From Myxococcota bacterium (GTDB lineage Bacteria; Myxococcota_A; UBA796; CAJQPC01), in contig DASCPX010000246.1 of assembly GCA_036012755.1 (NCBI GenBank), forward strand, positions 1-64,000: a stretch of DNA of 64,000 bases. Reading direction: 5' to 3'. How positions within the stretch are numbered: the stretch's first letter is position 1; every line of letters starts with the position of its first letter. A program made the position numbers and the translations under genes. Positions 2,582 to 64,000 of this stretch are shown in pieces. The notes beneath the pieces are model-generated. The model had not been told where the DNA came from, made no database searches, and worked only from the letters and a program-made list of their open reading frames with translations.

Positions 2582-5014
2582 CTAGAAGAAGGAGCCGATC
2601 GAGAAGTCGAAGACGCTGGTGCGCTCGTCCTCGTAGGGGGCGATGGGGAAGCCCCACTCGAAGCGGAGGGGGCCGATGGGGGAGAACCACCGGATACCGA
2701 AGCCGTAGCTGTAGCGGAGCCCCGCGACGTTGATGTGCTCCTCGTCGTAGGGGCCGTTGAAGGCGTTGCCCGCGTCGAAGAAGACCACCGCGGAGATGCC
2801 AGCGGCCTTGATGATCGGTGACTCCAGCTCGAAGTTGTTGATCCAGGTCTCGGTGCCGCCGACGATGAGGCGGTCGTCAGCGTGGGTCGGGTCGTCGGAC
2901 TGGAGGTTGCGGAGGCTCGGGCCGAGGCTGTACCAGTTGTAGCCGCGCACGGAGTTGATGCCGCCAGCCCGATAGCGGTGGATGTAGGGCACGACCGAGC
3001 CGTCGGTGGACTGGATGTGGCCCAGCGTCGTGTTGAAGCGGAAGATCAGGATGTCCTTGCCCGGGATGACCGGCTGGAACCACCGCACGTTCATGCGGTT
3101 CTCCCAGAGGTTGAACTGGCCGCCGAGCACGTTCACGACATCGTCGGTGTCACCGATACGGAAGCCGCCCGAGAGCTCGGAGCTGGCCGAGGCATAGAGG
3201 CCCTTCGTCGCCTTGATCCGGTTGTCGCGCTTGTCGACGTTGAGGTTCAGGCCCACGGTGGAGGTCAGGCCGTTGCGGTAGAGCTGACCACCGAAGAGGT
3301 GGGCCTGGTAGGGCGTGATGCGGGTGAGCCCGACGTCCTCCAGCGTGTAGTTCACGGTCAGGCGCCAGTCGTCCCGCCGATCGAGGTAGCGACCGACCGC
3401 GACTCCCCCACCCCGCTGGTACTGGTCCTCGACGTACTGCTGGCTGATGCTGAAGCCATCGACCTTGAGCGTCCAGCGCGTGTCGAGCAGGTAGGGATCG
3501 AAGAAGGACAGGTTCCACTGCTGGCGCAGGCTGGACCAGTTGATCGCGGCGTTCATGATGTAGCCGAGACCCAGGAAGTTCTGCTTGCTGACAGAGCCCG
3601 TGAGCACGAAGTTCTCGAGGTTCGAGAACCCCATGCCGACCGAGAAGCTGCCCGTGGGCTGTTCGACCACGTCGACGTTCATGTCGAGCACGTCCGCGGA
3701 CGCCCCCCGAGGAGTCGTGATGCGGACCTCCTCGAAGAAGCCGAGGCGCTCGAGGCGCTGGCGGGACTCGCGGATCTGGCTGCCGTTGTAGATCTCCCCT
3801 TCGTTGATGGGGATCTCCCGGCGGACGACCTTGTCCCAGGTCGGATCGTTGCCTGTGATGTTGATGCGCCCGATGCGGACCTTCTCTCCCCTGCTGATGA
3901 GGAAGGTCACGTCGACGACCTCGCTCTCGGGGTCGGTCCGGGTGTCCGGGTAGACGTTCACGAAGGCGTAGCCCTGGTCCCCATAGAGATCAGAGATGCG
4001 CTGCATCGTCAGCTGGACGTCCGAGAGCTTGAACCAGTCGCCGGTCTCCAAGGGCTGCGCGGCGCTGCTGTCGGCCGAGTAGTCGAAGAGCCGCCGCAGG
4101 CGAGGCAGGCGCCGGGCCTTCTCGTCCTGGACCTCCTTGACCGTCTCGCCACGCACGAGCCGCATCACGGCGTCCTCTGTGAGGCCCTCTTCCTCGACCC
4201 ACTCGCCGTCCGTGCGGAGGTGGCCGAGCTTGTAGCGCTTGCCCTCGTCGACGTGCACCGAGATGTAGATGTAGCGCTTGTCCGGGGAGAGGTAGACCTT
4301 TGGCTCGCCGATGGTGGCGTCGACGTAGCCCTCCTCCAGGTACACCGACTTGATGATCATGATGTCGGCGTCGAGGGCCTCCCAGTTGAAGGTGCCCGAA
4401 GAGGTCAGCCAGGGCGCGATGCCCCCCTCGCGGGTCTGGAGGAAGCGCTTGATCTTCCGGTCGGGGACGCCCTCGTTGCCCGTGATGTCGATGCTCTGGA
4501 CGATGACCTTGCGGTTCTCGACGATGTCGAAGGTGAGCTCGACGAGGTCGTCTCCGACCTCTGTCAGGTTCGGGTCGACCTCTGCGAGGAAGTAGCCCTT
4601 CTCGACGTAGAGGTCGCGGATGCGCTGCTGGTTCAGCGCTATGTCCGTGTCGTTGAGGACTGAGTACGGCGTGATGTCGATGACCTCGCGCAGATCGTCC
4701 TCGTCGACCTTCTTGTTGCCAGCGACGAGGACCTCGCGGACCGCGGGGTTCTCCTCGACGAGGAAGGTGACGATGACACCACCGGCCACGTCCGCGTCGG
4801 CGACGTCGACCTGGACATCCTCGAAGAAGCCCGTGCGGTAGACGGACTTGATGTCGCGGCGGATCTTCCAGGGCGCGAGGGTCTCGCCCTCCTGGAGCTG
4901 GACGGCGGCCAGCACCGCGGCGTCCTCGATGCGCTTGTTGCCCTCGACGCGGAGGTCCTTCACGGTCCCCGACTGCGCCAGGGCGATCCAGAAGGCGAGC
5001 AGGAGGTGAATCAC
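2582..5014 (-). CDS. bamA: Outer membrane protein assembly factor BamA
   Basis: POTRA repeats (VEGNKRIE, ITGN), VRGY motif, SPIGPLRFEWG, C-terminal Phe. Confidence 0.97.
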   Translation of the reverse strand: MIHLLLAFWIALAQSGTVKDLRVEGNKRIEDAAVLAAVQLQEGETLAPWKIRRDIKSVYRTGFFEDVQVDVADADVAGGVIVTFLVEENPAVREVLVAGNKKVDEDDLREVIDITPYSVLNDTDIALNQQRIRDLYVEKGYFLAEVDPNLTEVGDDLVELTFDIVENRKVIVQSIDITGNEGVPDRKIKRFLQTREGGIAPWLTSSGTFNWEALDADIMIIKSVYLEEGYVDATIGEPKVYLSPDKRYIYISVHVDEGKRYKLGHLRTDGEWVEEEGLTEDAVMRLVRGETVKEVQDEKARRLPRLRRLFDYSADSSAAQPLETGDWFKLSDVQLTMQRISDLYGDQGYAFVNVYPDTRTDPESEVVDVTFLISRGEKVRIGRINITGNDPTWDKVVRREIPINEGEIYNGSQIRESRQRLERLGFFEEVRITTPRGASADVLDMNVDVVEQPTGSFSVGMGFSNLENFVLTGSVSKQNFLGLGYIMNAAINWSSLRQQWNLSFFDPYLLDTRWTLKVDGFSISQQYVEDQYQRGGGVAVGRYLDRRDDWRLTVNYTLEDVGLTRITPYQAHLFGGQLYRNGLTSTVGLNLNVDKRDNRIKATKGLYASASSELSGGFRIGDTDDVVNVLGGQFNLWENRMNVRWFQPVIPGKDILIFRFNTTLGHIQSTDGSVVPYIHRYRAGGINSVRGYNWYSLGPSLRNLQSDDPTHADDRLIVGGTETWINNFELESPIIKAAGISAVVFFDAGNAFNGPYDEEHINVAGLRYSYGFGIRWFSPIGPLRFEWGFPIAPYEDERTSVFDFSIGSFF

Positions 5015-5724
5015 GTCCGCTCCACCAGCCCACCGTCGACGACCTCGAAGCGGCGAGCGAAGCGCTGGGCGAGAGCGTCCGCGTGGGTCACGACCACCAG
5101 CGTGCTGCCGTGCTCCTGGTTGAGCTCGAGCAACAGCTCGAAGACGGTCTCGGCGGTCTTCGGGTCGAGGTTTCCGGTCGGTTCGTCAGCGAGGAGCAGG
5201 CCCGGATCCATCACGAGAGCGCGTGCGATCGCCACGCGCTGCTGTTCACCCCCCGAGAGCTCGGAAGGGTAGTGCGTCAGCCGCTGGCCGAGCCCGACCC
5301 GCTCCAAGCGTGCCTGCGCGACCGACAGCGCTTCTTCGGTGGAGGTGCCCTGGATGATGAGCGGCAGCGCGACGTTCCCCTGGGCGGTCTGGTCTGGCAG
5401 CAGGTGGTGAAACTGGAAGACGAAGCCGATGCGGCGGTTCCGCAGACGGTCGACCTCTCGCTCCGGGAGCCGGAAGACCTTGCGGTCGTCCAGCAGGACC
5501 AGCCCCGATGTGGGTCGGTCCAGGGTGCCCAGTATCTGCAGGAAGGTGCTCTTGCCAGAGCCGGAGGGCCCGACGATGGCGACGGCGTCACCCGGTTCCA
5601 GCAGGAGATCGACCCCCTTGAGGACCTCGATGAGGCGACCGCCCTTCTGGAAGTTCTTGACGAGGTCCATGACCTCGACCCGGGCCCCCACGCGGACCTC
5701 GTTCTTCTGGAGCAGCTCATTCAC
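5011..5724 (-). CDS. lolD: Lipoprotein-releasing ABC transporter ATP-binding protein
   Basis: GPSGSGKS, LSGGEQQRVAIARAL, ADEPTGNLD and GFVFQFHHLL; adjacent to a LolC/E permease. Confidence 0.93.
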   Translation of the reverse strand: MNELLQKNEVRVGARVEVMDLVKNFQKGGRLIEVLKGVDLLLEPGDAVAIVGPSGSGKSTFLQILGTLDRPTSGLVLLDDRKVFRLPEREVDRLRNRRIGFVFQFHHLLPDQTAQGNVALPLIIQGTSTEEALSVAQARLERVGLGQRLTHYPSELSGGEQQRVAIARALVMDPGLLLADEPTGNLDPKTAETVFELLLELNQEHGSTLVVVTHADALAQRFARRFEVVDGGLVERT

Positions 5725-7018: not shown

Positions 7019-7024
7019 GGTCGG

Positions 7025-8521: not shown

Positions 8522-8548
8522 CGACCCGGAACTAACCTGCCGAGTGAA

Positions 8549-9211
8549 TCAGTAGTCGGGAAAAGCGCCCGCGTTGAGGAGGTCGGCGCAGTACTCAGCG
8601 TCGATGGTGCCAGAGATCTCTCCGCTGCCCTGGATGGGTTCGACGACGGTCGGGTAGCTGCCGGCGAACTGGGAGCCCATCGAGACCTCGATGGTGTACC
8701 CGCCGTCTTCGCCGTCGCCCGAAATCGTGGTGTCCCAGGCGGCGGGCGACGAGAGGTACTCGACGCCGGTCCAGAAGTAGTCGTAGTAGGGGCTGCCCTC
8801 GTCACGGGTGCCCCACTCGAAGGCCCCCTCCCCCATCGCGCAGCGCACGGACCAGAAGCCCAGGAGGACCCCGTCCGCGTCCGTGAAGCCGAAGGTCTCA
8901 CCGGGCACGTAGTCGATCGAGGAGTCCTGCGGGTTGATGACCAGCGTGAGGACGCAGTCGCCGCCCTCCCAGATGCCGGCCGGGTCGTGCTCGTCGGCGC
9001 TCGCCGCCAGGTAGGTGCTGACGCTGTCGCAGGTGGCGTCGGGGCTGGAGGCTAAGAACCAGAGCGCGTCGCCGTCGTAGTCGCGCCCGAAGGCCTTGTA
9101 GATGTTGACCTCTGCGGAGGCGTCGTCGGTGGACAGCGAGCCGGTCACCTGGGGATCTTCGGTGGCAGAGTCCCCCGGAACACCCTTGCAAGCCAACAGG
9201 AGCGTGAGCAT
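8549..9211 (-). CDS. Hypothetical acidic lipoprotein
   Basis: ATG at 9211 follows GGAGGT. Lipobox-like N-terminus MLTLLLAC. Upstream extension of the ORF would overlap truB. Confidence 0.7.
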   Translation of the reverse strand: MLTLLLACKGVPGDSATEDPQVTGSLSTDDASAEVNIYKAFGRDYDGDALWFLASSPDATCDSVSTYLAASADEHDPAGIWEGGDCVLTLVINPQDSSIDYVPGETFGFTDADGVLLGFWSVRCAMGEGAFEWGTRDEGSPYYDYFWTGVEYLSSPAAWDTTISGDGEDGGYTIEVSMGSQFAGSYPTVVEPIQGSGEISGTIDAEYCADLLNAGAFPDY

Positions 9212-9231
9212 CGGACCTCCAGTTGGGGAGA

Positions 9232-10562: not shown

Positions 10563-10583
10563 CAACCGCGAATAACCAGCTCC

Positions 10584-11672: not shown

Positions 11673-11727
11673 GAATGCCTCCAGGGTACGCGAATACACT
11701 TGTAGGGAAAACCCAACACCATCGCAA

Positions 11728-11752: not shown

Positions 11753-11765
11753 GTGACGCCTCAGC

Positions 11766-14127: not shown

Positions 14128-14841
14128 CTACCCGTTGCTGCGGCGCAGGCGACGCGCGACGTCCAGCGCGGAGCGGAGGACGGACGAAAGGCGCTCCGGC
14201 GGTACGAGGTCGGCCAGGATCTCGACCCCCTTCTGGTCGTGCTTGACCGCGCGGATCTCCGGGTGCTCCATCAGGCGCGACACGTCGTCGACGACGCCAC
14301 CGTCGGACAGCAGCGGTCGGGCGACGCTGGGCATCGCGGCGCGCAGCACCCAGCCACCTCGCCTGCCGACGAGGCGCCAGTCGGCGTCGTCGACCTCTGA
14401 GCCGTCGGCGTAGACGGGCAGGAACATCAGGCGCTGGCGCGCGGGTACCCCCATCCAGACGCTGATGAAGCCTGGCTGGGCCGGCTGGACCAGGACCTCG
14501 ACGCGCACTCCCTCGGCGCCACTGGCGAAGCCGAGGCCGTCGCGTGGATGCGTCTCCACTCCTCGTCCGAACTCCCCGGCCACCAGCCCGAGGGCCTCCG
14601 CGTAGGGCTGGTAGAGGGCGCCCCTGTCCGTGACGCCCTGGTAGAAGCGCACGGCGCTCGCGACGCTGCAGACCAACCCCAGGCCCCCGCACACCACGAA
14701 AGTGATCGTGTTGGCCCGGGCGCGATCATCCAGAGGCACACCGGCAGAGACCAGCATCTCCACGGCCGCGTCGGCGTACGAAGCCGCCAGCAGCATCAGC
14801 ACTCCCAGCACGAGAGCGAGCGCGGCGGAGAGCAGGCGCAT
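14128..14841 (-). CDS. Hypothetical membrane protein (two N-terminal TM helices)
   Basis: Two hydrophobic segments followed by a soluble domain; fills the gap between neighbouring genes. Confidence 0.65.
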   Translation of the reverse strand: MRLLSAALALVLGVLMLLAASYADAAVEMLVSAGVPLDDRARANTITFVVCGGLGLVCSVASAVRFYQGVTDRGALYQPYAEALGLVAGEFGRGVETHPRDGLGFASGAEGVRVEVLVQPAQPGFISVWMGVPARQRLMFLPVYADGSEVDDADWRLVGRRGGWVLRAAMPSVARPLLSDGGVVDDVSRLMEHPEIRAVKHDQKGVEILADLVPPERLSSVLRSALDVARRLRRSNG

Positions 14842-14968: not shown

Positions 14969-15214
14969 ATGGCTCGCCGTTGCGTCCTCACGGGCAAGCG
15001 CCCCAACACCGCGAACAAGGTCTCGCACTCCAACATCAAGACCAAGAAGCGCCAGCTCCCGAACCTGCAGAAGAAGCGCATCTGGTGGCCGGAGGAGGAG
15101 ACCTTCGTCCAGCTGCGTATCAGCACTCGCGCCCTGCGGACGATCCGCAAGAAGGGACTCCAGGCCTTCGCGAAAGAGGCCGGCGTCGACCTGCACAAGC
15201 ACAAGCAAGGCTGA
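14969..15214 (+). CDS. rpmB: 50S ribosomal protein L28
   Basis: MARRCVLTGKRP..NKVSHSNIKTKKRQLPNLQ; AAGGA ribosome-binding site upstream. Confidence 0.97.
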   Translation: MARRCVLTGKRPNTANKVSHSNIKTKKRQLPNLQKKRIWWPEEETFVQLRISTRALRTIRKKGLQAFAKEAGVDLHKHKQG

Positions 15215-16103
15215 GAATCAACAGCGCGCTCCGGGAGCCTCCCGCCCCGCAGCCACAACCCTCCGGCGGCGCCTCTGGTGCCTGGACAGCGGTCAGCTCG
15301 CGCGTGACGCAGTGCACCGCCCCGCCAGCGGCCACCAGCGAGTCCGCCGGGATGGGGACCACCTCGCGGTCGGGCAACAAGGCCTCCCAGTCCCCGACCG
15401 TGTCGGCCCCTGCATAGGACGGCACGAGGGCGACCTCGTCCAGGACCAGCGCGTTGGTGAAGCTCGGCCACGTCCCCTCGACGGGGTTGTGATCCCAGTC
15501 GACCTCGACGACCTCGATCACCTCTGAGAGCACCTCGGCGGCTGCATCGTCCGTCACCACCGCGAAGCCGTCGACGAGGAGCGAGAAGACATCTATGTGC
15601 TCGGTCGGCTCTCCCTCGAGCGGGTCCAGCCAGACGACCTCCTCACAGCCAAGGACCTCCAGGCGCGCTGCTGCCTCCTCCGCGTCCCACTCGTGGTCGC
15701 TGTGGATGGTCGAGCCGGCGACACAGAGGCCCCCGTCACGCAGGAGGTTGCCCCCTTCCAGCGGCAGGTCCACCGGCACGACCTCCTCGCCGAGGAGCTC
15801 TCCCAGGACCAGGGGCACGTCGTCGTCGCCCTGTCGGTTGCCGAAGTAGCGCGCATCTCCGAGCACGCGGACGCCATCCTCGACCACCGGTATCGGTCCG
15901 TAGTCCCGCATCCAGACGGTGTCGGTGGCGCAGTCGAGCCAGAGCACGCCGTCTACGAGAGCCTCTGCGTTGGCCGTGACCTCCGGGTCGGCCGCGCGAC
16001 AGACCCAGACGGGCACGTCGTGGTCCTGCAGCGCCTCGACCATCGCAAGGAAGGCATCGTCGTGCTCCGCGGGCCACGCGGCGAGCAGCACGGCCTCGGT
16101 CAC
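15120..16103 (-). CDS. Agmatine deiminase / peptidylarginine deiminase (PAD_porph) family protein with a MYXO-CTERM-like tail
   Basis: WMRDYGP, EGGN, HID and GGAVHCVT catalytic motifs. C-terminus GCGC-hydrophobic-RRR. Confidence 0.88.
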   Translation of the reverse strand: MTEAVLLAAWPAEHDDAFLAMVEALQDHDVPVWVCRAADPEVTANAEALVDGVLWLDCATDTVWMRDYGPIPVVEDGVRVLGDARYFGNRQGDDDVPLVLGELLGEEVVPVDLPLEGGNLLRDGGLCVAGSTIHSDHEWDAEEAAARLEVLGCEEVVWLDPLEGEPTEHIDVFSLLVDGFAVVTDDAAAEVLSEVIEVVEVDWDHNPVEGTWPSFTNALVLDEVALVPSYAGADTVGDWEALLPDREVVPIPADSLVAAGGAVHCVTRELTAVQAPEAPPEGCGCGAGGSRSALLILSLACACAGRRRPLSRRPGVPSCGSSAGREC

Positions 16104-16108
16104 CCCAC

Positions 16109-16720
16109 TCAGCGCAGCTCCGCCGCCCTGGCCGCGTCGATGCGGTCGAGGCTGCGATCCGCGTGCTTGACGACCTCTGAGGAGGGATCGCCAAGCAGCG
16201 GCGCGAGGGCCTCGAAGCCAGGCTCGTAGCCGATCCAGCCGATGCCGCGGGCGGCCATGGCGCGGACCTCTGCCGACTCGTCATCCAGCGCCGAGACCAG
16301 CGCTGGACCGCCGTCGGAGCGGTAGCCGAGGATCCGGGCGGCCTCGGCGCGGTTCTCGGCGCTGGCGGACTCGAGCTCCCCGACGAGGAGGTCCAGGGCC
16401 GCCTCGCCCTCGACACGCTTGAGGCCATCGAGCATCGGGCCGCGGACGGCCGCGTCCTCTTCCAGGGAGATGGCGACCACGAGCACCTCTGGAGAGTCGG
16501 CCTCGGCAAGCGCGCGGGCCACTGCCTGCTGGACCTCGAGGGACTCATCGACGTTCTGGAGGCGCCAGGCCAGCGCTTCGGCGGCGTCGGATGCCTCCAG
16601 CGAGGGACCACCGAGGCGGAGGAAACCGGCGCGTGTGGGCAGCGGCTCCAGCTCGATCACGGCCTCGGCCGAAGGGCTGGAAGGATCGAACGCCAGGGCG
16701 GCGGTGACGAACAACAGCAT
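16109..16720 (-). CDS. Exported HEAT-repeat protein
   Basis: Signal MLLFVTAALA; repeats LDDESAEVRAMAARGIG, LGDPSSEVVKHA, ENRAEAARILG. Confidence 0.82.
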   Translation of the reverse strand: MLLFVTAALAFDPSSPSAEAVIELEPLPTRAGFLRLGGPSLEASDAAEALAWRLQNVDESLEVQQAVARALAEADSPEVLVVAISLEEDAAVRGPMLDGLKRVEGEAALDLLVGELESASAENRAEAARILGYRSDGGPALVSALDDESAEVRAMAARGIGWIGYEPGFEALAPLLGDPSSEVVKHADRSLDRIDAARAAELR

Positions 16721-16722
16721 TT

Positions 16723-25481: not shown

Positions 25482-26195
25482 CTACTCGGTGTTGAAGGCG
25501 TAGCCGACGGTCGCCGCGTGGGCTTCGAGGGCTTCGAGATAGCGCATCGAGCGGGGGCTGGGGTCAGCGGCGTAGGCCTCCCTGGCGAGGCGCATCGCAC
25601 CGTCGAGATCGCCGGACTGCTCGGCCGCGACGGCCTCGTTGTGGAGGGCCCGAGCGGTGCCGGGCTCCGACTGGGCGTAGACACGGCGGGAGAGCTGCGC
25701 GGGGAGCGGGGCGAGGTCGTCGGCGACCTGCTGGGCGAGGCCCTCGTCCAGGGCGGAGCTGACGGCGCGAGCACGAGGTGCCGGAATGCGCCCCTCGTTG
25801 GCCCAGCTGCTGCTCTCCGAGTGATAGTGCTGCGGGTCCAGGGTGCCTATGGTCATGCTGGCCACCCGCACCTCGACGGTGGCGTTGCCAGTGCCCTCGA
25901 CGGTCACGCGCCGACGCTCGACCTCGTCGATCTCGACCCACTCGCCCTCGACCTCCACGATGGTCGAGAGGAACTCGTCGCAGTCCTTGACGACCAGGGT
26001 GGTGCTCGCGCCCGGGTCGATCGCAACGCCAGGGCGGGCGTCCATCGCGACCAGGACTGCGTCCGCTACGTCCCTGCACTCGGCTCCTTCCGCGGCGACC
26101 GAGAGAGTCGTGACATCGACCTCGACGGCGGGCGCCGGGGCCACTTTCCAGGCCACGTGCTGGGCGCAGCCGGTGAGGAGGACGAGCAGTGTCAT
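25482..26195 (-). CDS. Hypothetical lipoprotein with a C-terminal TPR-like helix pair
   Basis: MTLLVLLTGC lipobox; C-terminal HNEAVAAEQSGDLDGA. Confidence 0.65.
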   Translation of the reverse strand: MTLLVLLTGCAQHVAWKVAPAPAVEVDVTTLSVAAEGAECRDVADAVLVAMDARPGVAIDPGASTTLVVKDCDEFLSTIVEVEGEWVEIDEVERRRVTVEGTGNATVEVRVASMTIGTLDPQHYHSESSSWANEGRIPAPRARAVSSALDEGLAQQVADDLAPLPAQLSRRVYAQSEPGTARALHNEAVAAEQSGDLDGAMRLAREAYAADPSPRSMRYLEALEAHAATVGYAFNTE

Positions 26196-27073: not shown

Positions 27074-27358
27074 CTAGAAGGGAACCGTCGGGGGCTGGAT
27101 CTCCAGACCCTCGAGCAGGCCACCGGCGTCGGTCGGCCCCTCGTCCGACAGAGCGGTGGCGTCGACCCAACCGAAGTCCTGGCCCGAGCGGATCCGCACG
27201 CGCTCGTCCTCGCGGAAGAGCACCTCGACCTTCACCTCCGAGGCCACCGTGGCGACGATCGGGTTGTCCTCTGCCGCGCCCGGCCAGCGCAGCAACTCCG
27301 CTTCCTCCGTCGTCCAGGCGTCCTCGGCGAGACAGAGCGCGATCAGGGTCATCCACAT
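27074..27358 (-). CDS. Small exported SH3b-like domain protein
   Basis: Short signal MWMTLIALCLA; LRWP...KVEVL...RVRIR...FGWV pattern. Confidence 0.65.
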   Translation of the reverse strand: MWMTLIALCLAEDAWTTEEAELLRWPGAAEDNPIVATVASEVKVEVLFREDERVRIRSGQDFGWVDATALSDEGPTDAGGLLEGLEIQPPTVPF

Positions 27359-35865: not shown

Positions 35866-36331
35866 GCAGGAAAAGAAGGGCCCCCGCCACCCGAGCCTCC
35901 GCGGCGCGGCTCGACGTGTTCTCGGAGCCGGAGCCGGGGAGCGTCCCCTTCCCCGGACCCGTGAGGTGCTGGCGGGCCTCCTCGACTCCAGCGACAAGGT
36001 CAAGACCGAAGCTGTCCGGGCGCTGGGCCGAGAGGTCCGCTCCTACCTGGAGGGGCTCGGCATGGACGAGGCCCTCATGCACCTGTTCACGAACTACTCC
36101 CTGGAGGTCAACGCCAGCTTCAGCCTCAAGCCGCTGAGCGCCTCACCGGCGCCGACCGACGAGGAACAGCAGCAGGAACCAGGGGCCGAGAGCGACGTGA
36201 GCGCAGCTGGTGTCCGGTGGGAGAGCGTCCCGGACCCGGAGCTCGGCGCCGGAGACGAGGCGCAGGCCGTCGTCGACGACGACGCCGCGGACGCCGAGGG
36301 GGGCGAGGGGGTCGACGACGACGTCGACTGA
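35858..36331 (+). CDS. Hypothetical protein
   Basis: ATG overlaps the DinG 3' end; helical core (KTEAVRALGREVRSYL). The acidic tail overlaps the opposite-strand gene. Confidence 0.65.
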   Translation: MDEQEKKGPRHPSLRGAARRVLGAGAGERPLPRTREVLAGLLDSSDKVKTEAVRALGREVRSYLEGLGMDEALMHLFTNYSLEVNASFSLKPLSASPAPTDEEQQQEPGAESDVSAAGVRWESVPDPELGAGDEAQAVVDDDAADAEGGEGVDDDVD

Positions 36332-37837
36332 GACCTCCTCCTCCCTGACACGGACCGCCTCGACGACGACGCCATCGCCGAGGTCGACGACGACCTCCTC
36401 GCTGCCCGGGGGCTCCGACAGCGTGATCACGACGGTCTCCTGGTCCCCCTGGCGCAGGGAGTCAGGCTCGATGGACTCGATGGATGGCCGCCCCGCGCCG
36501 TCGAGGACCATGAAGGCCTCTGCGAGCTCGACCTCGACGCCGGCGGTGGTCAGCGCGAGATCGCGGAGGCCGACGGTCGCGTCCGTCTCGACGCGGACGA
36601 GCAGCTCGGCTCGATCGACGTCGAGCACCTCGATGGACTCGATCGTGATGCCCACCCCGAGCTCGGCCTCCACCTCTCCGTCGACGAGCAGCAGGTACTC
36701 GCCGAGCAGGTCGAGACGCAGCAGGTCGCCCTGCCAGGCGGAGCTCGGATCGAGGGTCTCCACCCGGGGCCGGTACACATCCAGCGACAGCTCCTCCGAG
36801 AGATCGCCCTCGCCCACGTCATAGACCGCCGAGACCGCGAAGACGTCGAGACCGTCGCCGTCCACGGCGACGATGGCTCCTTCGATCTCGGGCTCCGCGA
36901 CGAGCTCGCCGCCGCGGTAGACCCGGTAGCTCTCGAGGTCGTGGATCGAGCTCGGCGCGCTCCAGGTCAGGCCGGCCTCGACGTCGATGATCCTCCCCTC
37001 CGGGCCTGCGAGATCCTCTGGTGCCAGGAGGCGGACCCGGAAGTCCTGCAGATCCGTCTGGCTCGTGTTGATTCCGTCGCTGGCCTCGATCCACCAGGAC
37101 ACGACCGTGTCGGGGGGCTGCCCGGGGATGCCGCCAGCCCACACCTCGCCGAAGCGCACCAGCTCGGCGAGCCCCGAGTCGACGTCGGTCTCCCAGAAGA
37201 GCCCGAGCGAGGCCAGGCCCTGATCGTCCTCGGCCTCGACCTCGACCACGTAGGGTCCGTCGAGGTCCTCTGTGTCGCTGGGGGTCGAGATCACCACCAG
37301 GCGCGGCGGCACGATGTCCCCGTCCCACAGCTCGAGGTCGTCGATGTACCAGCCGGTCCCCTGAACGCTGGCGTCGCTCGAGAACACGAGCCGGAGCTCG
37401 GACAGATCGGAGAGCCCCGAGAGGTCGACGTAGACCTGCTGCCAGCCGCCGGTGTCCCCTGTGAAACCCGAGGGGTCCGGGTAGCCGTAGGCGGGCTCGA
37501 CACGTGTCCAGCCCCCCTGCCCGTCCGAGGCCTCGAGATAGGCCGCGTCGCCGCTCTGGATCTCGGTCCAGTGCCAGAAGACCAGGGACGGGTTCACCGT
37601 CGAGCCCAGGTCGAAGGCGGGGAGGTAGAGCAGGCCCTCCGCGTCGTTCAGGTAGGGGCCATCGAGGCGCGTGGCCCACACGCGGGACCCCGTGTGCGCG
37701 GCGCCGGGACCGGTGCTCGGCAGCCCCCACTCCCACTGGAGGTCACCGACCTCGGGGCCGAGTCCGCCGTCGTCCTCTTCGAGATCGATGCTCCAGAGCG
37801 ACGTCGCAGCCGCGACCGCGACGCTGACGAAGATCAT
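36143..37837 (-). CDS. Surface protein with a lectin/MAM-like domain, Fn3 and Ig/IPT-like domains and a C-terminal sorting signal
   Basis: Short signal; WEWGLP, GWYIDD, LTWSAP..SYRVYR; C-terminus SC-hydrophobic-RRR. Confidence 0.8.
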   Translation of the reverse strand: MIFVSVAVAAATSLWSIDLEEDDGGLGPEVGDLQWEWGLPSTGPGAAHTGSRVWATRLDGPYLNDAEGLLYLPAFDLGSTVNPSLVFWHWTEIQSGDAAYLEASDGQGGWTRVEPAYGYPDPSGFTGDTGGWQQVYVDLSGLSDLSELRLVFSSDASVQGTGWYIDDLELWDGDIVPPRLVVISTPSDTEDLDGPYVVEVEAEDDQGLASLGLFWETDVDSGLAELVRFGEVWAGGIPGQPPDTVVSWWIEASDGINTSQTDLQDFRVRLLAPEDLAGPEGRIIDVEAGLTWSAPSSIHDLESYRVYRGGELVAEPEIEGAIVAVDGDGLDVFAVSAVYDVGEGDLSEELSLDVYRPRVETLDPSSAWQGDLLRLDLLGEYLLLVDGEVEAELGVGITIESIEVLDVDRAELLVRVETDATVGLRDLALTTAGVEVELAEAFMVLDGAGRPSIESIEPDSLRQGDQETVVITLSEPPGSEEVVVDLGDGVVVEAVRVREEEVSVDVVVDPLAPLGVRGVVVDDGLRLVSGAELRVRDALPPDTSCAHVALGPWFLLLFLVGRRR

Positions 37838-38757
37838 TCTGTCTGCAGCTCGTACCGGACCTCGATCAGGCTTCCGGCCGGAGGTGCGTCGTCGAAGGAC
37901 AGGGTCGTGCCCTCGAGAACCCAGCCGCCGTCGAGGCGCTCGTCATCGATGGCGACCCGCGGCTTGTTGGCCGGCTCGGCCTGGAGCTCGAAGGTGGTCG
38001 GATAGTGGGCGGAGAGCTCGACGATGGCTTCCAGGACCGCATCCAGATCGGCCTCACAGATGCTGCCGACGGTCCCGCCGGTGTTCTCGGCGACCTCCGC
38101 ATAGGTCGTGCCGGGAAAGGCCTCTCCCCCCGGTCCCCGACATCCGCCGGGCACGTCACCGATCACGGCGGACAGCTGGGCGTCGAAGCCGGTGCCCTCG
38201 GCCTGCTCTTCGAGGAAGGCGGTGGCGCTCGCCGCCGCATCGGCTCCGAGGACGTCCTCGCTCGCGTCATCGTCGTCCGAGAGCACGACGACGTGCAGCG
38301 CCGCGTCTGCACGGCGGAAGCCCCGGTTGTCGTCGTCGACCAGGGGTGTCGACAGGGCCAGGACCATCGCTCCGAGGCCAGCCTCGTCGACCCCGTCCGT
38401 GCCTACATCCACCGCCTGCGCGAGGTCCCCCACCGGGTCCTGGCTCGCCGCCGTGATGATCCACGGATCACCCTGGAGGATCCCCGCTTCGTCGCTCTCC
38501 GAGGCCGTGGTGACGACCCCGATGTGGTAGGCGAGACCGAGCTCGTCGATGGCCCCGACGAAGGCGGCGAAGGACTCCGCCAGGGCTGCTTGCTCCTCTG
38601 CCATCGAGCCGGTGTCGTCGACCACGAAGAGCAGATCGACCTTCTGGTGCGGGGCCTGCTCGAAGGTCTCCACGACCACGACGGGGTCTTGGAACTCGGG
38701 GTCCTGGCCGCGGACGAGGTTCTCGATACCGCAGCCCGCGAGGACGCAGAGGAGCAT
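37834..38757 (-). CDS. vWA-domain lipoprotein
   Basis: MLLCVLAGC; DLLFVVDDTGSM MIDAS-like motif; VVLSDDDD. Confidence 0.82.
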   Translation of the reverse strand: MLLCVLAGCGIENLVRGQDPEFQDPVVVVETFEQAPHQKVDLLFVVDDTGSMAEEQAALAESFAAFVGAIDELGLAYHIGVVTTASESDEAGILQGDPWIITAASQDPVGDLAQAVDVGTDGVDEAGLGAMVLALSTPLVDDDNRGFRRADAALHVVVLSDDDDASEDVLGADAAASATAFLEEQAEGTGFDAQLSAVIGDVPGGCRGPGGEAFPGTTYAEVAENTGGTVGSICEADLDAVLEAIVELSAHYPTTFELQAEPANKPRVAIDDERLDGGWVLEGTTLSFDDAPPAGSLIEVRYELQTE

Positions 38758-38778: not shown

Positions 38779-39276
38779 TCACCGATCCCGCGGGTCGAAC
38801 TTCAGGGCCTCCACCCAGATGACCATGTCGCCCTCTCGAACCTCGCGCCCCATGCGGATGCGGTCGAAGCCGCTGTGCCAGCGCAGGCGGACCTCGTTCG
38901 TGAGGTTGTAGGGCCGATCGATGTCCGACGGCAGACCGGTGGCGTGGAGCGCAGGACCCTGGCGCATCGCGCGCGGCAGGTCCACGTGCACCAGGTAGAT
39001 GGTGCCGTCCTTCACCTTCACGCGGCCGCGCTCCATGACGTACTCGGTGCCGTCCATGACGCCGAGGTCGTTGACCTCCTGGATGTCACCGAGCTGGATG
39101 CTCACCTCGCCGCGGACCTCGTCGAAGCTGCGCCCCCCCAGGAACTGGATGTCGACGTAGACACCCTCTTTGCGCTCGTAGGCCGTCTCGAACTCGACGG
39201 ACTCCTCGTCCACGACGGGGACGCCAGGAAGGATTGGCTCGGAGGGGCCGCAGCCCCAGATCAGAAAGACCCACAT
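38779..39276 (-). CDS. Hypothetical lipoprotein
   Basis: MWVFLIWGC lipobox-like N-terminus; alternative start at 39294. Confidence 0.65.
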   Translation of the reverse strand: MWVFLIWGCGPSEPILPGVPVVDEESVEFETAYERKEGVYVDIQFLGGRSFDEVRGEVSIQLGDIQEVNDLGVMDGTEYVMERGRVKVKDGTIYLVHVDLPRAMRQGPALHATGLPSDIDRPYNLTNEVRLRWHSGFDRIRMGREVREGDMVIWVEALKFDPRDR

Positions 39277-39299
39277 CACACAGAGGTTATCCAACCGGC

Positions 39300-45091: not shown

Positions 45092-46543
45092 GTGTGGCTC
45101 CTCGCCGCCAAGTTCGCACACGCGAGCCCGGCTGAACTCTACGGCTTCGGCGCCCGAGCGATGGGCCGGGCCCAGGGTGGTGTCTCCCTCGAAGGCGACG
45201 CCGGCTCCGCCCTGCTGAACCCGGCGCTCCTGGCAGGGCACGACAAGTCACAAGTGCTCATCGGCTACGCGCTCGTGCGCTTCGACTTCGACGAGATCCC
45301 ACCCCTGTACTGGGACACCAACCGGGACGGGCTCATCGACGAATACGACGAGCCCCTCAGCATGGGGGACTACGACAAGGGCGACGGCTTCATGCTCGGG
45401 CTGCGCCGCCCCATCGGCGAGCGCTTCGGCATCGGCGCCGCCCTGTTCGTGCCGCAGGCGCGGCTGCTCCGCATCCAGACGGTCGATCCCCAGCTGCCGA
45501 ACTACATCATGTACCGGAACCGGACCCAGCGGTACGCGCTGGCCCTGGGATTCGCCGCCGAGCCCGTCCGGAGCTTGCAGGTCGGGGGCGGGGTGCGGTT
45601 GTTGTCCCGCTCGGTCCTCGACGTCACCTTCACCATCGACAGCGTCGTCCACGGCGATCAGCCCGCGGATGCAGGGGTCGAGGACGTCACGGAGCTCGAG
45701 GCGCGGGTCCATGACCTCTCCTTCGACCTCAAGCCCGCGGCTGTCCCGGTCTTCGGCCTCCGCTGGGACGCCGGCGAGCTCGTCGAGCCCCTCGACGGCC
45801 TCGCGCTCGGTTTCGTGTGGCGAAACGAGGGGGGCATTCCGATCGACGTGAACCTCGACGCCCAGCTCAACGCCTCGGCAGAGGACGTCGGAGAGCTCGA
45901 GCCGGTCAGCGTCGCGGCGCTGGGCAAGGTCTACATCAACATCTTCGATCACTACATGCCGATGCAGTTCCAGTTCGGCGGGAGCTACTCGGTCGACGAC
46001 ATCCTGCACTTCTACCTGGACGTGCACCACACGCGCTGGGGAGCGATGCAGCTGAACTCCACGCAGCTGCTCGACGCGGAGCTGCAAGCGACGATGGCCG
46101 ATCTCGGAGATCTGACCATCGAAAACGGCCACGACGTGAGCGGCATCGAGTGGCGGAACACCTGGAGCATTCGCACCGGAACGGAGCTCTTCCTGCCCCG
46201 CTTCCCCTTGCCGGGCGACCTCGGCTGGAAGGCCGCCCATGTCCGCGGTGGCTTTGGATACGAGCCAAGCCCGCTGGTCGCCCAGACAGCCGAGACCTCG
46301 CTCCTGGACGCTGACCGACTGCTCTTCGGCCTCGGCATCGGCGTCTCCCATGGCGCCATCAACAACACGGTCGAGGGGCCCGTGAGCTGGGACCTCTTCT
46401 TCCAGTACCACACGCTCGCCCGCGGAACGCTGAAGCGCCCTGCAACTGACGAGCACCGCGCGGGTTACCCGGTAAACGGCGCGCCCATCCCGATCGGAGG
46501 CCGCTTCTTCACGACCGGATTGCAGTGCAGCTTTGACTACTAG
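45092..46543 (+). CDS. OmpP1/FadL-like outer-membrane transporter
   Basis: YGFGARAMG, NPA plug motif, alternating beta-strands, RGGFGYEPSP, C-terminal aromatic residue. Confidence 0.85.
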   Translation: MWLLAAKFAHASPAELYGFGARAMGRAQGGVSLEGDAGSALLNPALLAGHDKSQVLIGYALVRFDFDEIPPLYWDTNRDGLIDEYDEPLSMGDYDKGDGFMLGLRRPIGERFGIGAALFVPQARLLRIQTVDPQLPNYIMYRNRTQRYALALGFAAEPVRSLQVGGGVRLLSRSVLDVTFTIDSVVHGDQPADAGVEDVTELEARVHDLSFDLKPAAVPVFGLRWDAGELVEPLDGLALGFVWRNEGGIPIDVNLDAQLNASAEDVGELEPVSVAALGKVYINIFDHYMPMQFQFGGSYSVDDILHFYLDVHHTRWGAMQLNSTQLLDAELQATMADLGDLTIENGHDVSGIEWRNTWSIRTGTELFLPRFPLPGDLGWKAAHVRGGFGYEPSPLVAQTAETSLLDADRLLFGLGIGVSHGAINNTVEGPVSWDLFFQYHTLARGTLKRPATDEHRAGYPVNGAPIPIGGRFFTTGLQCSFDY

Positions 46544-48639: not shown

Positions 48640-51126
48640 TCAGTTCGCAGTGAGGTCCCCGCCGAAGGTCACGTAGCCGTCCTCCGCGCCGTCCAGATCG
48701 ATGTTCACGTTGTCCAGGGTGAAACCTTCCAGATCCGGGATCGGGAACTCGCCGAGGGCGCCCGTCAGGGTCGGCAGCAGCAGGTCGACCAGCTCGCCGA
48801 GGAAGCTCTCGACCCCATCGGCGTGGATGCTGCGCTCGTTCGGGTAGACCAGGTCGAAGAGGATCTCCGTGTCGCCGAGGCCCGCCGACAGGGTGCTGTC
48901 CGCTGTCGCCTCCAGCTCGAGGCCGACGGTGACGGTCACGTAGAAGCGCATCCAGAGGTTCGCCTCGTCGATGTCCCCGTCGTAGAGGCTGACCTCGAGG
49001 TCCCCCAGCTGGAGGTCCAGCAGCTCGGACCCGGTACCGGGGATGACCACCGGCGGCAGGTAGGCCACCGTGCCGATGCCCAGGGAGGAGAACGGCAGGA
49101 ACTCGCCGAACTCGCCGACGTCCAGGCCCAGCTCCTCGGCGGGCATCTGCATGTCGAGCAGGCCGCCGACCCAAAGGGCGTGGAAGGCCTGGTTCAGGAA
49201 GTCCTCTGAGATGCCCAGGATCATCGCGTTGGTCGCGCCGGAGTAGGTCGGCGCCGTGTAGGGGTACACGAGGCTGCCCGGCGTGTCGGTAAACGGCGAC
49301 ATCCAGGCCTGGGCCGTGAACCAGGTCTCGAGCCCGAGCGTGAGGCCGTAGTCGTCAACGCTGACGCTGTAGGGGATGGCGTCGAAGTCGTAGGTGTTGT
49401 CCTCGATCTCGAAGGTCTCGCCGATCTCCAGGCCCTGGACCGCGTCCGCGAAGAGCGAGGGGATCTCGTCCTCTGCCATGTCCTCCATCAGCCCGCCGAG
49501 CACGCTCCAGACCAGCGCGTCGACCGGGATTCCGAAGAAGTCGATGACATCCCAGAGCCAGCCTTCGAGATCGAAGTCGAAGCCGTCCTCGTCAGTGGAG
49601 ACGTTCGCGACCGTGACTCCGAGCTGTCCGCTGGAGACATAGGGCGTCATCTCCATCGAGATGCTGATCCAGTCCGCGTCGATGGAGCCCGACTGGCTGT
49701 AGCTGATGCCGATGACCTTGCCCGAGGCGTTGAAGTCGAGGTGCGGGTCGTAGATGATGGCTTCGGTGTCGAGGTAGCCACCGCTGGTCGGATCGATGTC
49801 CAGCGAGGTCGACCCGATGGAGGGGTTCGTGACCCGGAAGGTCACCGAGTACCACTCCCAGCACCAGGAGACGATGCAGCTCTCGGCGCTGTCCTCGAAG
49901 ACCGGATCCGGGATCGCCGAGGCCAGGGCGTCGGTGTCGATGAAGTCTCCGGCGAGCTCCTCCAGCGTGTCGAAGCCGTCCTCTGTGATGCGGGCCTGGA
50001 AGCCGTCCCCGATGCCGTAGCCGTAGCTGTTGAACTCGCCGGCGATCACGGCGCGGGTGTCGGTGGTGCGGTTGCCGTCACCGTCGATGGCGACGGTCTC
50101 CAGCGTGGTCATGCCGAAGTCGTAGGCCTGCAGCGACTCCCAGGTGCCGTCGGAGTTCAGGGTCGCCGTGTCGCCGTTGACCGTGATCGAAGAGACCCCG
50201 GACCACTCCTCGAAGACCGTGCCGCCGACGTACTGGCCGTCGTCGGTGGTCTGGGTGCCGCGCTCGGGGACGAAGACCTCCAGCTCGGGGCCGGTGGAGT
50301 CGATGAGGAAGGGCCCGACGCTGTCTGACAGGGCCTCGTCCGTGGTCGCGGCGTAGACCGTGTACCAGCCCTCGGCGTCGAAGGTGATGGCGTTGTAGGA
50401 CACGGTGACGTCGGTCATCGGGTCGGTCCAGAGGTCCCAGGGCTCGTCGCCCGCGGGGTTGCCGTACGCATCGACGATGGTGACGGTGGCCAGCGTCGTC
50501 TCGGAGACCTCCAGGTCCGTCCGGGAGAGCTCGAGGTCCAGTCCGGCGGCCGGTCCGGGCACGACCACGAACTCCTCGATGTCCGAGACCACGTCGTTGG
50601 ACGCGGTCGCTTCGTAGAGGCCGGAGACGGTGCTGTAGAAGGTGTTGCCCTCGATCGCGACGTCGGAGGAGTCCAGCGTGACCTCGATGCCGGTGGTCGG
50701 GGTCTCGTTGCCGAAGGCGTCCCAGGCGACCACGCCGAAGGTGATGGGCACCCCGGCGTCGGTCTGCAGGTCGGAGAGCTGGAGGTCTACCAGCGCCGGC
50801 GCCCCGGGAGACACGGCCATGTCCACCGTCACCACGTAGAGCTCGCCCTCGAACATCGTCGAGGCGGTCAGCTCGTGCGGACCGGCGACCGTCGGGACCA
50901 GCGTGCCGTCGCCCCAGTCCAGCATCTCCTCGAGCGAGGAGCTCATCATCAGCTCGTCGTCGAGCGCTATGGGCTCCGAAGCACCGTCCATGTATGCGAG
51001 GTAGGCGACCTCGTCCCCAGCGGTCGGCGTCGGGTCGTCCAGCGTGACGACCAGATCGAGCACGTTGCGGAAGGTGCTGTACTCGTTCCGGCAGCCAGAC
51101 AGGGCGATGAGCACGAACAAGGGCAT
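48640..51126 (-). CDS. Large lipoprotein with Ig-like repeats and a C-terminal BPI/LBP (TULIP)-like region
   Basis: LSGC lipobox; DAFGN/DAYGN/DGDGN Ig repeats; GFQARITEDGFD and MILGISEDFLNQAF..LW.GGLL motifs. Alternative start at 51147. Confidence 0.75.
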   Translation of the reverse strand: MPLFVLIALSGCRNEYSTFRNVLDLVVTLDDPTPTAGDEVAYLAYMDGASEPIALDDELMMSSSLEEMLDWGDGTLVPTVAGPHELTASTMFEGELYVVTVDMAVSPGAPALVDLQLSDLQTDAGVPITFGVVAWDAFGNETPTTGIEVTLDSSDVAIEGNTFYSTVSGLYEATASNDVVSDIEEFVVVPGPAAGLDLELSRTDLEVSETTLATVTIVDAYGNPAGDEPWDLWTDPMTDVTVSYNAITFDAEGWYTVYAATTDEALSDSVGPFLIDSTGPELEVFVPERGTQTTDDGQYVGGTVFEEWSGVSSITVNGDTATLNSDGTWESLQAYDFGMTTLETVAIDGDGNRTTDTRAVIAGEFNSYGYGIGDGFQARITEDGFDTLEELAGDFIDTDALASAIPDPVFEDSAESCIVSWCWEWYSVTFRVTNPSIGSTSLDIDPTSGGYLDTEAIIYDPHLDFNASGKVIGISYSQSGSIDADWISISMEMTPYVSSGQLGVTVANVSTDEDGFDFDLEGWLWDVIDFFGIPVDALVWSVLGGLMEDMAEDEIPSLFADAVQGLEIGETFEIEDNTYDFDAIPYSVSVDDYGLTLGLETWFTAQAWMSPFTDTPGSLVYPYTAPTYSGATNAMILGISEDFLNQAFHALWVGGLLDMQMPAEELGLDVGEFGEFLPFSSLGIGTVAYLPPVVIPGTGSELLDLQLGDLEVSLYDGDIDEANLWMRFYVTVTVGLELEATADSTLSAGLGDTEILFDLVYPNERSIHADGVESFLGELVDLLLPTLTGALGEFPIPDLEGFTLDNVNIDLDGAEDGYVTFGGDLTAN

Positions 51127-51674: not shown

Positions 51675-52157
51675 ATGATCTGGCTGTTCGCCTGCGCGAT
51701 CCCCGAGTACCCGACAGACGTCGAGCTCAATCCGACCTCCGTCGAGTTCCCCTGGGTCTCCTACGAAGAGGAGCCCCCCGAGTCCGTCGAGGTGGGTGTT
51801 CGCAACCACGGCGAGGGCCCCGCATACTTCACGCTCGTCGGGCTCGAGGGCGAGGGACTCGGCAACCTCATGGTCGTCGGCGAGTGGTCCGACGCCATCG
51901 TGCCACCAGGACAGGGCAAGTCCTTCAGGGTCGCGATCTCCCGGGTCTACGAGGACTGGGACCACGGCGAGTACGACGTCGACGTGGTGGTCGAGGCGAT
52001 CGCGGCCTACGGCGGAGGCTGGGGAACGCCCTATGACCAGTCCGACACGGTCGACACCTACACCCTGCCGGTCATCGTGAGGATCGACTGCGATCTGGAC
52101 GCCGACGGCGAGGAGTCCACGGTCTGCGGGGGCACGGACTGGGACGACAAGCTCTAG
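51675..52157 (+). CDS. Hypothetical lipoprotein (Ig-like domain)
   Basis: MIWLFAC; PTSVEF..VRNHGEGP; terminal DCDLDADG..CGG.D motif. Confidence 0.65.
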   Translation: MIWLFACAIPEYPTDVELNPTSVEFPWVSYEEEPPESVEVGVRNHGEGPAYFTLVGLEGEGLGNLMVVGEWSDAIVPPGQGKSFRVAISRVYEDWDHGEYDVDVVVEAIAAYGGGWGTPYDQSDTVDTYTLPVIVRIDCDLDADGEESTVCGGTDWDDKL

Positions 52158-53131: not shown

Positions 53132-53491
53132 ATGTCTTTCCTACTAGCCGCATGCACCGGGACCCCCAGCATCGAGACCGTCACCATCGAGGACGAAGGT
53201 GTCGTCTGCTGGACCACGGATGGGGACCTCATCATCGACTTCCAGGAGTGCCTGAGCTCCAGCTGCGACACCCTCCTGTCCTCGAGCTGCAGCGCCAGCC
53301 TCGACGAGGACGTGCTGATGGTCACTGGAGCGGCGGAGATCGAGAGCTACGTGGACACCGTCTGCACAGACGACTGCGGCTTCGTCGGCGCCACCTGCGA
53401 GCTGCCGCTCATCGAAGATCCGGCCACGGTGACCGTGAGCTACGGAGGCGTCGATACTCCGATGGAGGAGGTCCCGGACTGCGGCTGGTAG
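53132..53491 (+). CDS. Small Cys-rich lipoprotein
   Basis: AGGAG ribosome-binding site; MSFLLAAC; CLSSSC and CTDDC. Confidence 0.7.
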   Translation: MSFLLAACTGTPSIETVTIEDEGVVCWTTDGDLIIDFQECLSSSCDTLLSSSCSASLDEDVLMVTGAAEIESYVDTVCTDDCGFVGATCELPLIEDPATVTVSYGGVDTPMEEVPDCGW

Positions 53492-53513
53492 TTCACGCGG
53501 CGTCCCTGGGAGC

Positions 53514-55882: not shown

Positions 55883-55893
55883 GGCTCTTGCGT

Positions 55894-55910
55894 AATAAGT
55901 CCGACTTATT
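55894..55910. promoter_or_regulatory. 17-bp palindrome AATAAGTC-C-GACTTATT, probable FadR-type operator
   Basis: Perfect 8-bp inverted repeat with a 1-nt spacer, 11 nt upstream of the GntR start. Confidence 0.75.
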
Positions 55911-55923
55911 CGCGCACCCTGGA

Positions 55924-57111: not shown

Positions 57112-57157
57112 GGTCTCCCTCGCTGCTGCTCGGCCTACATCCAGCATAGGATTCGGC

Positions 57158-58929: not shown

Positions 58930-58933
58930 GTGC

Positions 58934-60484: not shown

Positions 60485-60528
60485 CAGAGCGCCGAGGATA
60501 CGCCTCTGTCTCGTCAGAGTCCCTTTCT

Positions 60529-61230: not shown

Positions 61231-61277
61231 GTCCCTTCATAAGGGCTGTGCCACCCTCTGGTGAGGAGGTCCGAGCA

Positions 61278-63550: not shown

Positions 63551-63576
63551 CGTACAGACGACGAACTGGCAGACGA

Positions 63577-63605
63577 AGGTCGCCCCTGCGAAGCAGAAGC
63601 GACCT
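63577..63605. other. Stem-loop in a divergent intergenic region
   Basis: AGGTCGC-CC-CTGC-GAA-GCAG-AA-GCGACCT; forms a 13-bp stem on the minus strand with G-U pairs. Confidence 0.6.
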
Positions 63606-63637
63606 CGACACCTATACTCCCGGCCGGAGGTGCCCCC

Positions 63638-64000
63638 ATGTGGCTGTTGTGTGCCTTGGCTCTGGCAGATGAAGGGATGTGGCTCCCCGAACAGATCCCT
63701 GCGATGTCCGATGACCTCGCGACCATGGGGCTCCGCATACCGGCCAACGAGGTCGCGGACCCGCAAGGGGACCTGCTCGGCTCGATCGTGTCACTCGGCC
63801 ACTGCACCGCGAGCTTCGTCTCCGAGACCGGGCTGATCCTCACCGCCGCGCACTGCGTCAGCGGCTACCTCCAGCAGGCAGAGCTGGCCGACGAGGACCT
63901 TCGTCGTGACGGCTACATCGCAGCCTACGGCGGCGCCGAGGCCTCGGCCGGACCGGGCGCCCATCTCTACGTCACCGAGCGCATCGAGGACGTCACCGAA
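63638..64000 (+). CDS. S46-family dipeptidyl peptidase, 3'-truncated by the window edge (not in the ORF track)
   Basis: TATACT at 63613 and GGAGGT ribosome-binding site; translation MWLLCALALA-DEGMWLP..GHCTASFVSETGLILTAAHC. Confidence 0.9.
   Translation, partial: MWLLCALALADEGMWLPEQIPAMSDDLATMGLRIPANEVADPQGDLLGSIVSLGHCTASFVSETGLILTAAHCVSGYLQQAELADEDLRRDGYIAAYGGAEASAGPGAHLYVTERIEDVTE

Follow-up and report, generated by a model that had tools for sequence, protein, structure and literature searches.

Very short, uncharged leaders as probable export signals in one order of Myxococcota

Can a bacterial protein be exported by a signal of only 6–14 residues that carries no basic charge? Bacteria are taken to use, almost universally, a tripartite signal peptide with a basic n-region and at least 15 residues. 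The question is raised by the first 64,000 nucleotides (nt) of contig DASCPX010000246.1 of a Myxococcota bacterium (assembly GCA_036012755.1), hereafter the window, in which a sequence-only reading had listed 13 exported-type proteins, including BamA, with very short and mostly uncharged leaders. All 13 N-termini translate exactly as listed. The BamA gene (2582..5014, minus strand; five POTRA domains and Omp85 by Pfam) is a clear case. Its uncharged leader of 13 residues, of the signal peptidase I (SPase I) type, lies at 4976–5014 and starts with GTG, as does that of FadL. There is a 4-nt overlap (GTGA) between this start and the upstream stop, as there is in relatives, and the 57 upstream codons contain no in-frame ATG, GTG or TTG. 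The overlapping stop belongs to an open reading frame for an ABC ATPase (5011..5724, minus strand), a putative LolD as judged from sequence and context.

The host genome (6.73 Mb, 68% G+C, 96% complete) was annotated with a self-trained gene model that kept 5,816 genes, of which 5,514 were analysed. A lipobox-like Cys lies near the start of 833 genes; the 796 leaders that could be assigned have a median of 8 residues, and 673 do not exceed 10 residues. The nearest ATG falls 6–9 codons ahead of the Cys at 389 of 838 near-start sites, compared with 17 of 320 internal sites, and the residue after M-hhh-[AGS] is Cys at 231 of 463 positions, compared with 1.2% Cys overall. An in-frame stop, with all three stop codons represented, occurs within 14 codons of the Cys in 145 of the 833 genes (within 10 codons in 79), which excludes a start further upstream there, whatever its codon. 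The start overlaps the upstream stop for 195 Cys leaders, 160 of which have at most 10 residues. A TANNNT peak at −12/−13 is the signature of leaderless mRNAs; this −10 box precedes 113 of the 489 uncoupled Cys-leader starts, compared with 0.1% at 3,203 internal ATG or GTG codons. The codons upstream of short-leader starts are non-coding and hydrophilic.

These observations bear on the reading of the short leaders as an artefact, in which the true starts would lie further upstream, hidden by rare start codons, a frameshift, recoded stops or assembly errors, and would restore normal basic signals. The sequence-only reading had named this outcome as fatal to its proposal. A plausible canonical upstream start does exist for 18 of the 673 short leaders, and for these alone. 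The in-frame stops, overlaps and −10 boxes refute an artefact for the pinned sets, and the same pattern recurs in many independent assemblies, which leaves this explanation a negligible probability.

To pin starts blindly, without looking at the protein sequence, we used overlaps (1,300 starts) and −10 boxes (527 starts), 1,827 in all. The 304 lipoprotein-type leaders in this set have a median of 7 residues; 275 have at most 10, and lysine or arginine (K/R) occurs in only 5 of these. The 179 SPase I-type leaders have a median of 12 and a mode of 10–11 residues; 117 have at most 14, and 6 of these bear K/R. The claim that the leaders are minimal and uncharged thus stands. As an outgroup control, the same classifier with a simpler gene model was applied to about 1.2 Mb from 6 other-order and 8 other-class genomes (155 pinned starts). 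Lipoprotein leaders there have a median of 16.5 residues (n = 8, one short, by a near-identical test) and SPase I leaders a median of 19 (n = 17, one short), with K/R in 24 of the 25. The distance from the start to the Cys or A-x-A site, for which a genome-wide count had been called for, is therefore not ordinarily distributed in the host.

Charge follows leader length within the host genome. K/R occurs in 1 of 181 lipoprotein leaders of 5–7 residues, 4 of 94 of 8–10, 2 of 12 of 11–13, 6 of 7 of 14–17 and all 10 of 18 or more; in successive length classes of SPase I leaders the counts are 3/84, 3/33, 12/22 and 34/40. Among all 673 short leaders 7 bear K/R, a count that follows in part from the start rule itself and is superseded by the blind-pinned one. 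The lipoprotein consensus is Met followed by 5–8 hydrophobic residues ending in L-L-A-Cys, 6–10 residues in all, and the SPase I type ends in A-x-A, mostly after 9–14 residues. The first 20 mature residues have a net charge of about −3, versus −0.5 in other pinned genes. Short-leader lipoproteins are also very acidic, with −13 net charges per 100 residues versus −3.3 in other pinned genes.

Measured against the known signal types, the Cys leaders have the hydrophobic stretch and the small −1 residue of a Sec signal processed by signal peptidase II (SPase II) and lack its positively charged n-region. The SPase I-type leaders have a hydrophobic h-region and an A-x-A site directly before the mature domain of exported families (S46, BamA, SurA, DegP, TonB receptors, OEP), and lack the basic n-region and the length of at least 15 residues. 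The Tat twin-arginine motif does not account for them: the short leaders contain no Arg, and a Tat-like pattern occurs at 8 of the 1,827 pinned starts, all with long leaders. The PROSITE-style lipoprotein rule asks for a Cys at residue 15–35 and K/R within the first 7 residues. It recognizes 13 of the 304 blind-pinned lipoprotein leaders, in agreement with the suggestion that standard prediction, at least by classical rules, misses them; a G+LPP-like pattern recognizes 9.

The families that carry the leaders, with cleavage sites read by eye, include proteins that must be exported. Short SPase I-type leaders are found on BamA and SurA (13 residues each), BamD (14), DegP (at most 13), one LolA (11), three TonB receptors and OEP proteins (10–11 each). 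Short Cys leaders precede CpoB-like (7–8 residues), Tgl/PilW-like (10) and three of six AcrA-like proteins (7–9). BamD (contig C149) has no lipobox Cys and an SPase I-type leader, and may therefore be a soluble periplasmic protein. YajC (contig C27) differs from E. coli YajC in a 10-residue signal-like leader that ends in A-W-A ahead of its single transmembrane segment. A minority of proteins still have canonical signals: long K/R-bearing signals are kept by TolB, Pal, Skp, two AcrA-like proteins, two TonB receptors and one OEP protein. That the long signals mark foreign genes was rejected, with equal G+C at third codon positions (p 0.33) and a barely lower coding score (p 0.02).

Two window proteins allow the leader to be aligned with known signals. 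Pfam confirms the identities proposed for BamA, FadL and the S46 peptidase, and the last is also confirmed by alignment with DAP BII. In the alignment, residue 12 of the S46 protein stands opposite residue 2 of the mature DAP BII chains (698 residues); the mature chain begins where the S46 leader ends and is 24 residues shorter than the full-length form of 722 residues. For the protein-arginine deiminase starting at 18330 (minus strand), 95 of the 120 best homologues contain a lipobox match within the first 45 residues and 25 contain none; one match, at residue 3, was set aside. Ahead of the same Cys, K/R is present in 62 of 62 homologues with signals of 15–34 residues, 14 of 23 with 11–14 and 0 of 9 with 7–10. 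Homologues thus bear canonical signals before this Cys, which indicates that the short leader occupies the position of a normal lipoprotein signal.

In the available excerpts of the papers cited here by PMC number, normal signals have lengths of about 20 and 25 residues (PMC3824201), the lipoprotein Cys is normally at position 21.4 ± 2.7 (PMC13068155), and SPdb takes 15–40 residues as normal and sets aside entries below 11 as unverified (PMC1276010). The short Cys leaders resemble canonical Sec/SPase II signals of the E. coli Lpp type in their hydrophobic run ending in L-x-[AGS]-Cys, in their AcrA-like and Tgl/PilW-like carriers and in the Lgt, LspA, Lnt and LolA encoded beside them. In contrast to that type, they have no basic n-region, their Cys is at residue 7–10 rather than about 21, and two thirds have Leu at −2. 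The other class shares the h-region and A-x-A site of canonical Sec/SPase I signals, on BamA, SurA, DegP, FadL, TonB receptors and the S46 peptidase, but is uncharged with a mode of 10–11 residues; the S46 leader has 10 residues where that of DAP BII has 24. The leaders are probably Sec-type signals of about half the minimum or textbook length; they would work like SPase I and SPase II signals but fail their rules of length and charge.

The distribution of the trait was surveyed by counting, in each genome, the matches to a DNA motif that encodes a Cys leader of 7 residues, and genomes with at least 30 matches were taken as high-count. The host genome has 95 matches and 2 in the reverse control. 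High counts occur in 41 of 127 genomes of the host order, in families f1 (7/19), f7 (27/30), f6 (4/11), f3 (2/40) and f5 (1/16) and not in f2 (0/9) or f4 (0/2). None of 26 genomes from other orders of the class reaches 30, nor does any of 257 from outside the host order in the phylum sample (maximum 29). The trait is thus real, genome-wide and, as had been proposed, limited to a lineage. Low-count members of the order have leaders of intermediate length. Among BamA proteins of 15 named relatives with a start overlapping the upstream stop, leaders have 15–25 residues, and 11 lack K/R in the first seven residues (read by eye); a sixteenth sequence, which did not translate from the overlap, is left out of this count. 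BamA relatives at 55–88% identity are mostly records titled Myxococcota bacterium or Deltaproteobacteria bacterium; BamA proteins of 58–74% identity in records titled Enterobacterales and Bifidobacterium breve (L003, L006, L007) probably come from mislabelled or mixed bins. On a SecY tree that was built quickly and rooted at its midpoint, high-count genomes fall on four separate branches, a pattern suggesting that the leaders were trimmed, or reverted, more than once.

The genome encodes SecY, SecE, SecG, SecA, SecD, SecF, YajC, YidC, Ffh, FtsY, TatA, TatC and three LepB-like proteins. For lipoproteins it encodes five Lgt, two LspA with both catalytic motifs, Lnt and two LolA. Two LspA and two Lgt genes form a tandem lspA-lspA-lgt-lgt operon (contig C59:100000-102591), and tandem lspA also occurs in several relatives. 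SecB was not found. The 96% complete genome also gave no LptE match and no match to E. coli LptD, and lipopolysaccharide export may be divergent or absent.

That short Cys leaders escape Lgt and LspA, and are kept as uncleaved hydrophobic anchors or acylated by another enzyme, would suit a leader far shorter than a membrane-spanning helix with a non-standard Leu at −2; myxobacterial lactamases predicted to be lipoproteins are, moreover, soluble in E. coli (PMC13616975). Against it stand the encoded Lgt, LspA, Lnt and LolA, Leu at −3 in 451 of the 673 short leaders with Ala, Gly or Ser at −1 in all 673 (a position set by the search rule), and the deiminase homologues with canonical lipoprotein signals ahead of the same Cys. 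We consider such an escape quite improbable.

The sequence-only reading had further supposed that the export machinery is adapted to the short leaders. The changes in SecY and SecA described below are suggestive in this respect; Ffh shows no loss, and Lgt and LspA copy numbers are equally high in outgroups. Several candidate causes were rejected on such grounds. For Ffh, 0 of 153 conserved columns are lost order-specifically. The five Lgt copies of the host compare with 2–7 in other orders. LspA is present in two copies in the host and in 1–2 in relatives and in five outgroups, and no clear order-specific change is visible by eye. The acidic-pocket segment of SecA (E. coli 289–294) is absent from outgroups as well as from the order. 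In SecA, Tyr replaces L372 in 14 of 15 genomes of the order and Ser replaces N369 in 15 of 15; L372 presumably lines the signal groove, a placement that our literature search did not confirm. The C-terminal zinc-binding motif of SecA ends in Cys-Cys in 15 of 15 genomes of the order (L185-L214 set) and mostly in Cys-His in outgroups.

SecY position 187 (E. coli numbering) is Ala or Ser in 38 of 38 genomes of the order and Ile in 15 of 15 of other orders, and the other five pore-ring residues are Ile or Val in the order. Position 192 is Thr, Ser, Ala or Val, compared with Phe or Met in outgroups. Position 286 is Ala or Val in all seven high-count f7 genomes compared (L330, L333, L334, L339, L340, L348, L352); the low-count f7 genome G209 has Leu there. 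I187 is a named member of the pore ring, and five prlA sites are described as channel-lining (PMC2171872). Mutations of the prl type reduce the need for a signal (PMC2585858), changes in the pore ring and plug let defective or missing signals through (PMC2585858, PMC2171872), and pore-ring substitutions often raise translocation and give super-active channels (PMC13537251). I187A/S is thus a substitution of the pore-ring or plug class expected of a prlA-type channel. The order resembles E. coli prlA suppressors in Ala or Ser at 187 and, within f7, Ala or Val at 286. It differs from them in that G69, I191, I278 and I408, among the prlA sites covered by the excerpts, are unchanged, with S282 replaced by Ala in some genomes, and in that I187A/S is the wild-type state of the order, with an effect that is predicted only.

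We propose that the short leaders are genuine, cleavable export signals without a basic n-region, read by Sec and processed by Lgt, LspA and LepB, and give this reading a probability of about 0.75. SecA, and perhaps the signal recognition particle (SRP) for some proteins, would bring the preprotein to SecYEG by its hydrophobic tag, and the acidic mature N-terminus would help SecA targeting. Weak signals would suffice to open a translocon that has a smaller residue in its pore ring (I187A/S) and bears F192T, just as they do in E. coli prlA mutants. The leader, too short for a bilayer-spanning helix and without a cytoplasmic K/R anchor, would be drawn into the membrane; because it cannot span the bilayer as a helix, it would have to lack such an anchor. 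The lipobox Cys or A-x-A site would thereby be placed at the periplasmic face or outer-leaflet interface, where Lgt and LspA act (PMC8048626). Lgt, LspA, Lnt or LepB would then act as usual, and canonical signals would still work. In PMC9360617 the h-region is treated as essential and the basic N-terminus as a matter of efficiency, a description that loss of the n-region alone fits. The permissive translocon is the weakest part of this explanation, and we hold it only tentatively. The same caution applies to a history in which a prl-like SecY arose first in the whole order and several branches then trimmed hundreds of signals to charge-free tags of 6–9 residues. Such tags might sink into the membrane without spanning it and present the lipobox to Lgt and LspA, as a minimal code beside the canonical one, a picture that is possible but less than even in its odds.

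Several points weigh against this proposal. The reported gains from SecY substitutions are only mild (log2 0.47 for I187M and 0.28 for F192S), and no I187A/S row is among the supplement rows listed, which cover two of the five I187 occurrences (PMC13537251). I187A/S is also present in 24 of 24 low-count genomes of the order and does not track the strength of the trait; only three weak SecY columns (37, 356, 376) separate 14 high-count from those 24 genomes. Of 174 conserved SecY columns, 7 show an order-specific loss; I187 is one of these, and by this count the probability that a pore-ring residue is hit by chance is about 0.2. Of 122 genomes belonging to other classes, 6 contain a similar small-residue SecY motif, which is out of frame in at least one, and none of the 6 is high-count where surveyed. 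The lipobox is non-standard, with Leu at −2 in 202 of the 304 blind-pinned leaders and the standard [LVI][ASTVI][GAS]C (PMC8048626) in 61. Most short-leader carriers belong to no known family, and it is from sequence that we infer cleavage and lipidation. The outgroup sample is small (25 leaders), and the rule used to classify SPase I leaders is of our own making and visibly admits false positives.

The strong variation of the trait among genera with the same SecY residue hints at another factor, and the leaders might be read by a separate route, with a dedicated targeting factor or YidC/SRP-dependent insertion, the SecY changes being incidental. A core of 6–7 residues is below the preference of SRP for about 12–17 hydrophobic residues (PMC9360617), and SecB was not found in the host. 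No candidate for such a factor was identified, however, and Ffh has no order-specific loss; leader lengths grade into those of canonical signals both within one family and within one genome, as would fit gradual trimming along a single pathway. We regard a separate route as rather unlikely. Taken together, n-region-less Sec signals and a separate route make an export function of the leaders likely.

About one gene in eight (673/5,514) has a lipoprotein-type leader of at most 10 residues, and, if the leaders are Sec signals, essential envelope proteins use uncharged signals of 10–14 residues. The trait would set a natural lower limit on signal length, with loss of charge tied to loss of length, and would provide a direct test case for the roles of the n-region and of SecY proofreading. 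Rule-based prediction misses about 95% of the lipoproteins of this lineage, and very short secretion or lipid-anchoring tags could serve engineering. No published description of the trait was found in the literature searched, which did not extend to subscription journals and bioRxiv supplements. Myxococcota secretomes are described as large, and short signals are not mentioned in the available part of that paper (PMC11495043). The closest parallel is with myxobacterial metallo-beta-lactamases, whose type II signals are shorter than that of NDM-1 and poorly lipidated in E. coli; in contrast to the trait of this order, that work concerns one Myxococcia enzyme family set against an unusually long signal, and its excerpts describe neither uncharged leaders of 6–9 residues nor a genome-wide trait (PMC13616975).

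In the window, several starts are pinned by a Shine-Dalgarno (SD) motif or by overlap with or adjacency to an upstream stop, as had been noted (for example 5014, 37837, 16720 and 45092). An SD-like word stands at starts 5014, 9211, 16720, 18330, 53132 and 63638, and those at 26195 and 51675 are the least firmly pinned. All five window proteins looked up in public collections have exactly the same starts there. Pfam recognizes BamA, FadL/TodX, S46, the protein-arginine deiminase and one HEAT-repeat protein among the 13, and gives no match for the other 8. That most exported proteins of the window are short holds in part: the 13 leaders are real, and the protein starting at 14841 looks canonical, with those starting at 51126 and 43416 and the gene ending at 58934 (all minus strand) ambiguous or longer.

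On the minus strand, lipoprotein-type genes lie at 8549..9211 (7-residue leader and then Cys; no Pfam match; a public-collection entry with an identical start), 25482..26195 (9 residues), 37834..38757 (8 residues; in-frame stop 7 codons upstream; again a public-collection entry with an identical start) and 38779..39276 (8 residues; in-frame stop 11 codons upstream). The deiminase (PF03068; 16723..18330) is also lipoprotein-type, with an 8-residue leader. The HEAT-repeat protein (16109..16720) has an SPase I-type leader of about 10 residues and starts 2 nt past the upstream stop. A small exported-type protein (27074..27358) has an 11-residue leader, and none of the 43 in-frame codons that separate its start from the stop is ATG, GTG or TTG; another exported-type protein (36143..37837), with a leader of about 11 residues, overlaps the upstream stop by 4 nt (ATGA). 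A lipoprotein-type gene at 48640..51126, absent from the original list, has a leader of 11 residues, or of 18 from an ATG 7 codons upstream. On the plus strand, the FadL/TodX outer-membrane transporter (45092..46543) starts 5 nt past the upstream stop, and its 11-residue leader contains one Lys (residue 7). Lipoprotein-type genes follow at 51675..52157 (6-residue leader, from the translated N-terminus) and 53132..53491 (7 residues). The S46 dipeptidyl peptidase (63638..64000, continuing beyond the window end) has its 10-residue leader at 63638–63667, and the Pfam profile begins at residue 10.

A TAACCT −10-like box (39284..39289, minus strand) lies 13 nt ahead of the start at 39276, and the mRNA of that gene is probably leaderless. 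Leaderless transcription looks common in this genome, with TANNNT at −12/−13 at 527 of the 1,827 pinned starts. At 15120–18330 (minus strand), the PF03068 deiminase lipoprotein is two genes from a Porphyromonas-type peptidyl-arginine deiminase (PF04371). A gene cut by the contig start (1–2153, plus strand) encodes a GWDT-type tandem peptide repeat, MopE-like metal-binding repeats and FG-GAP repeats.

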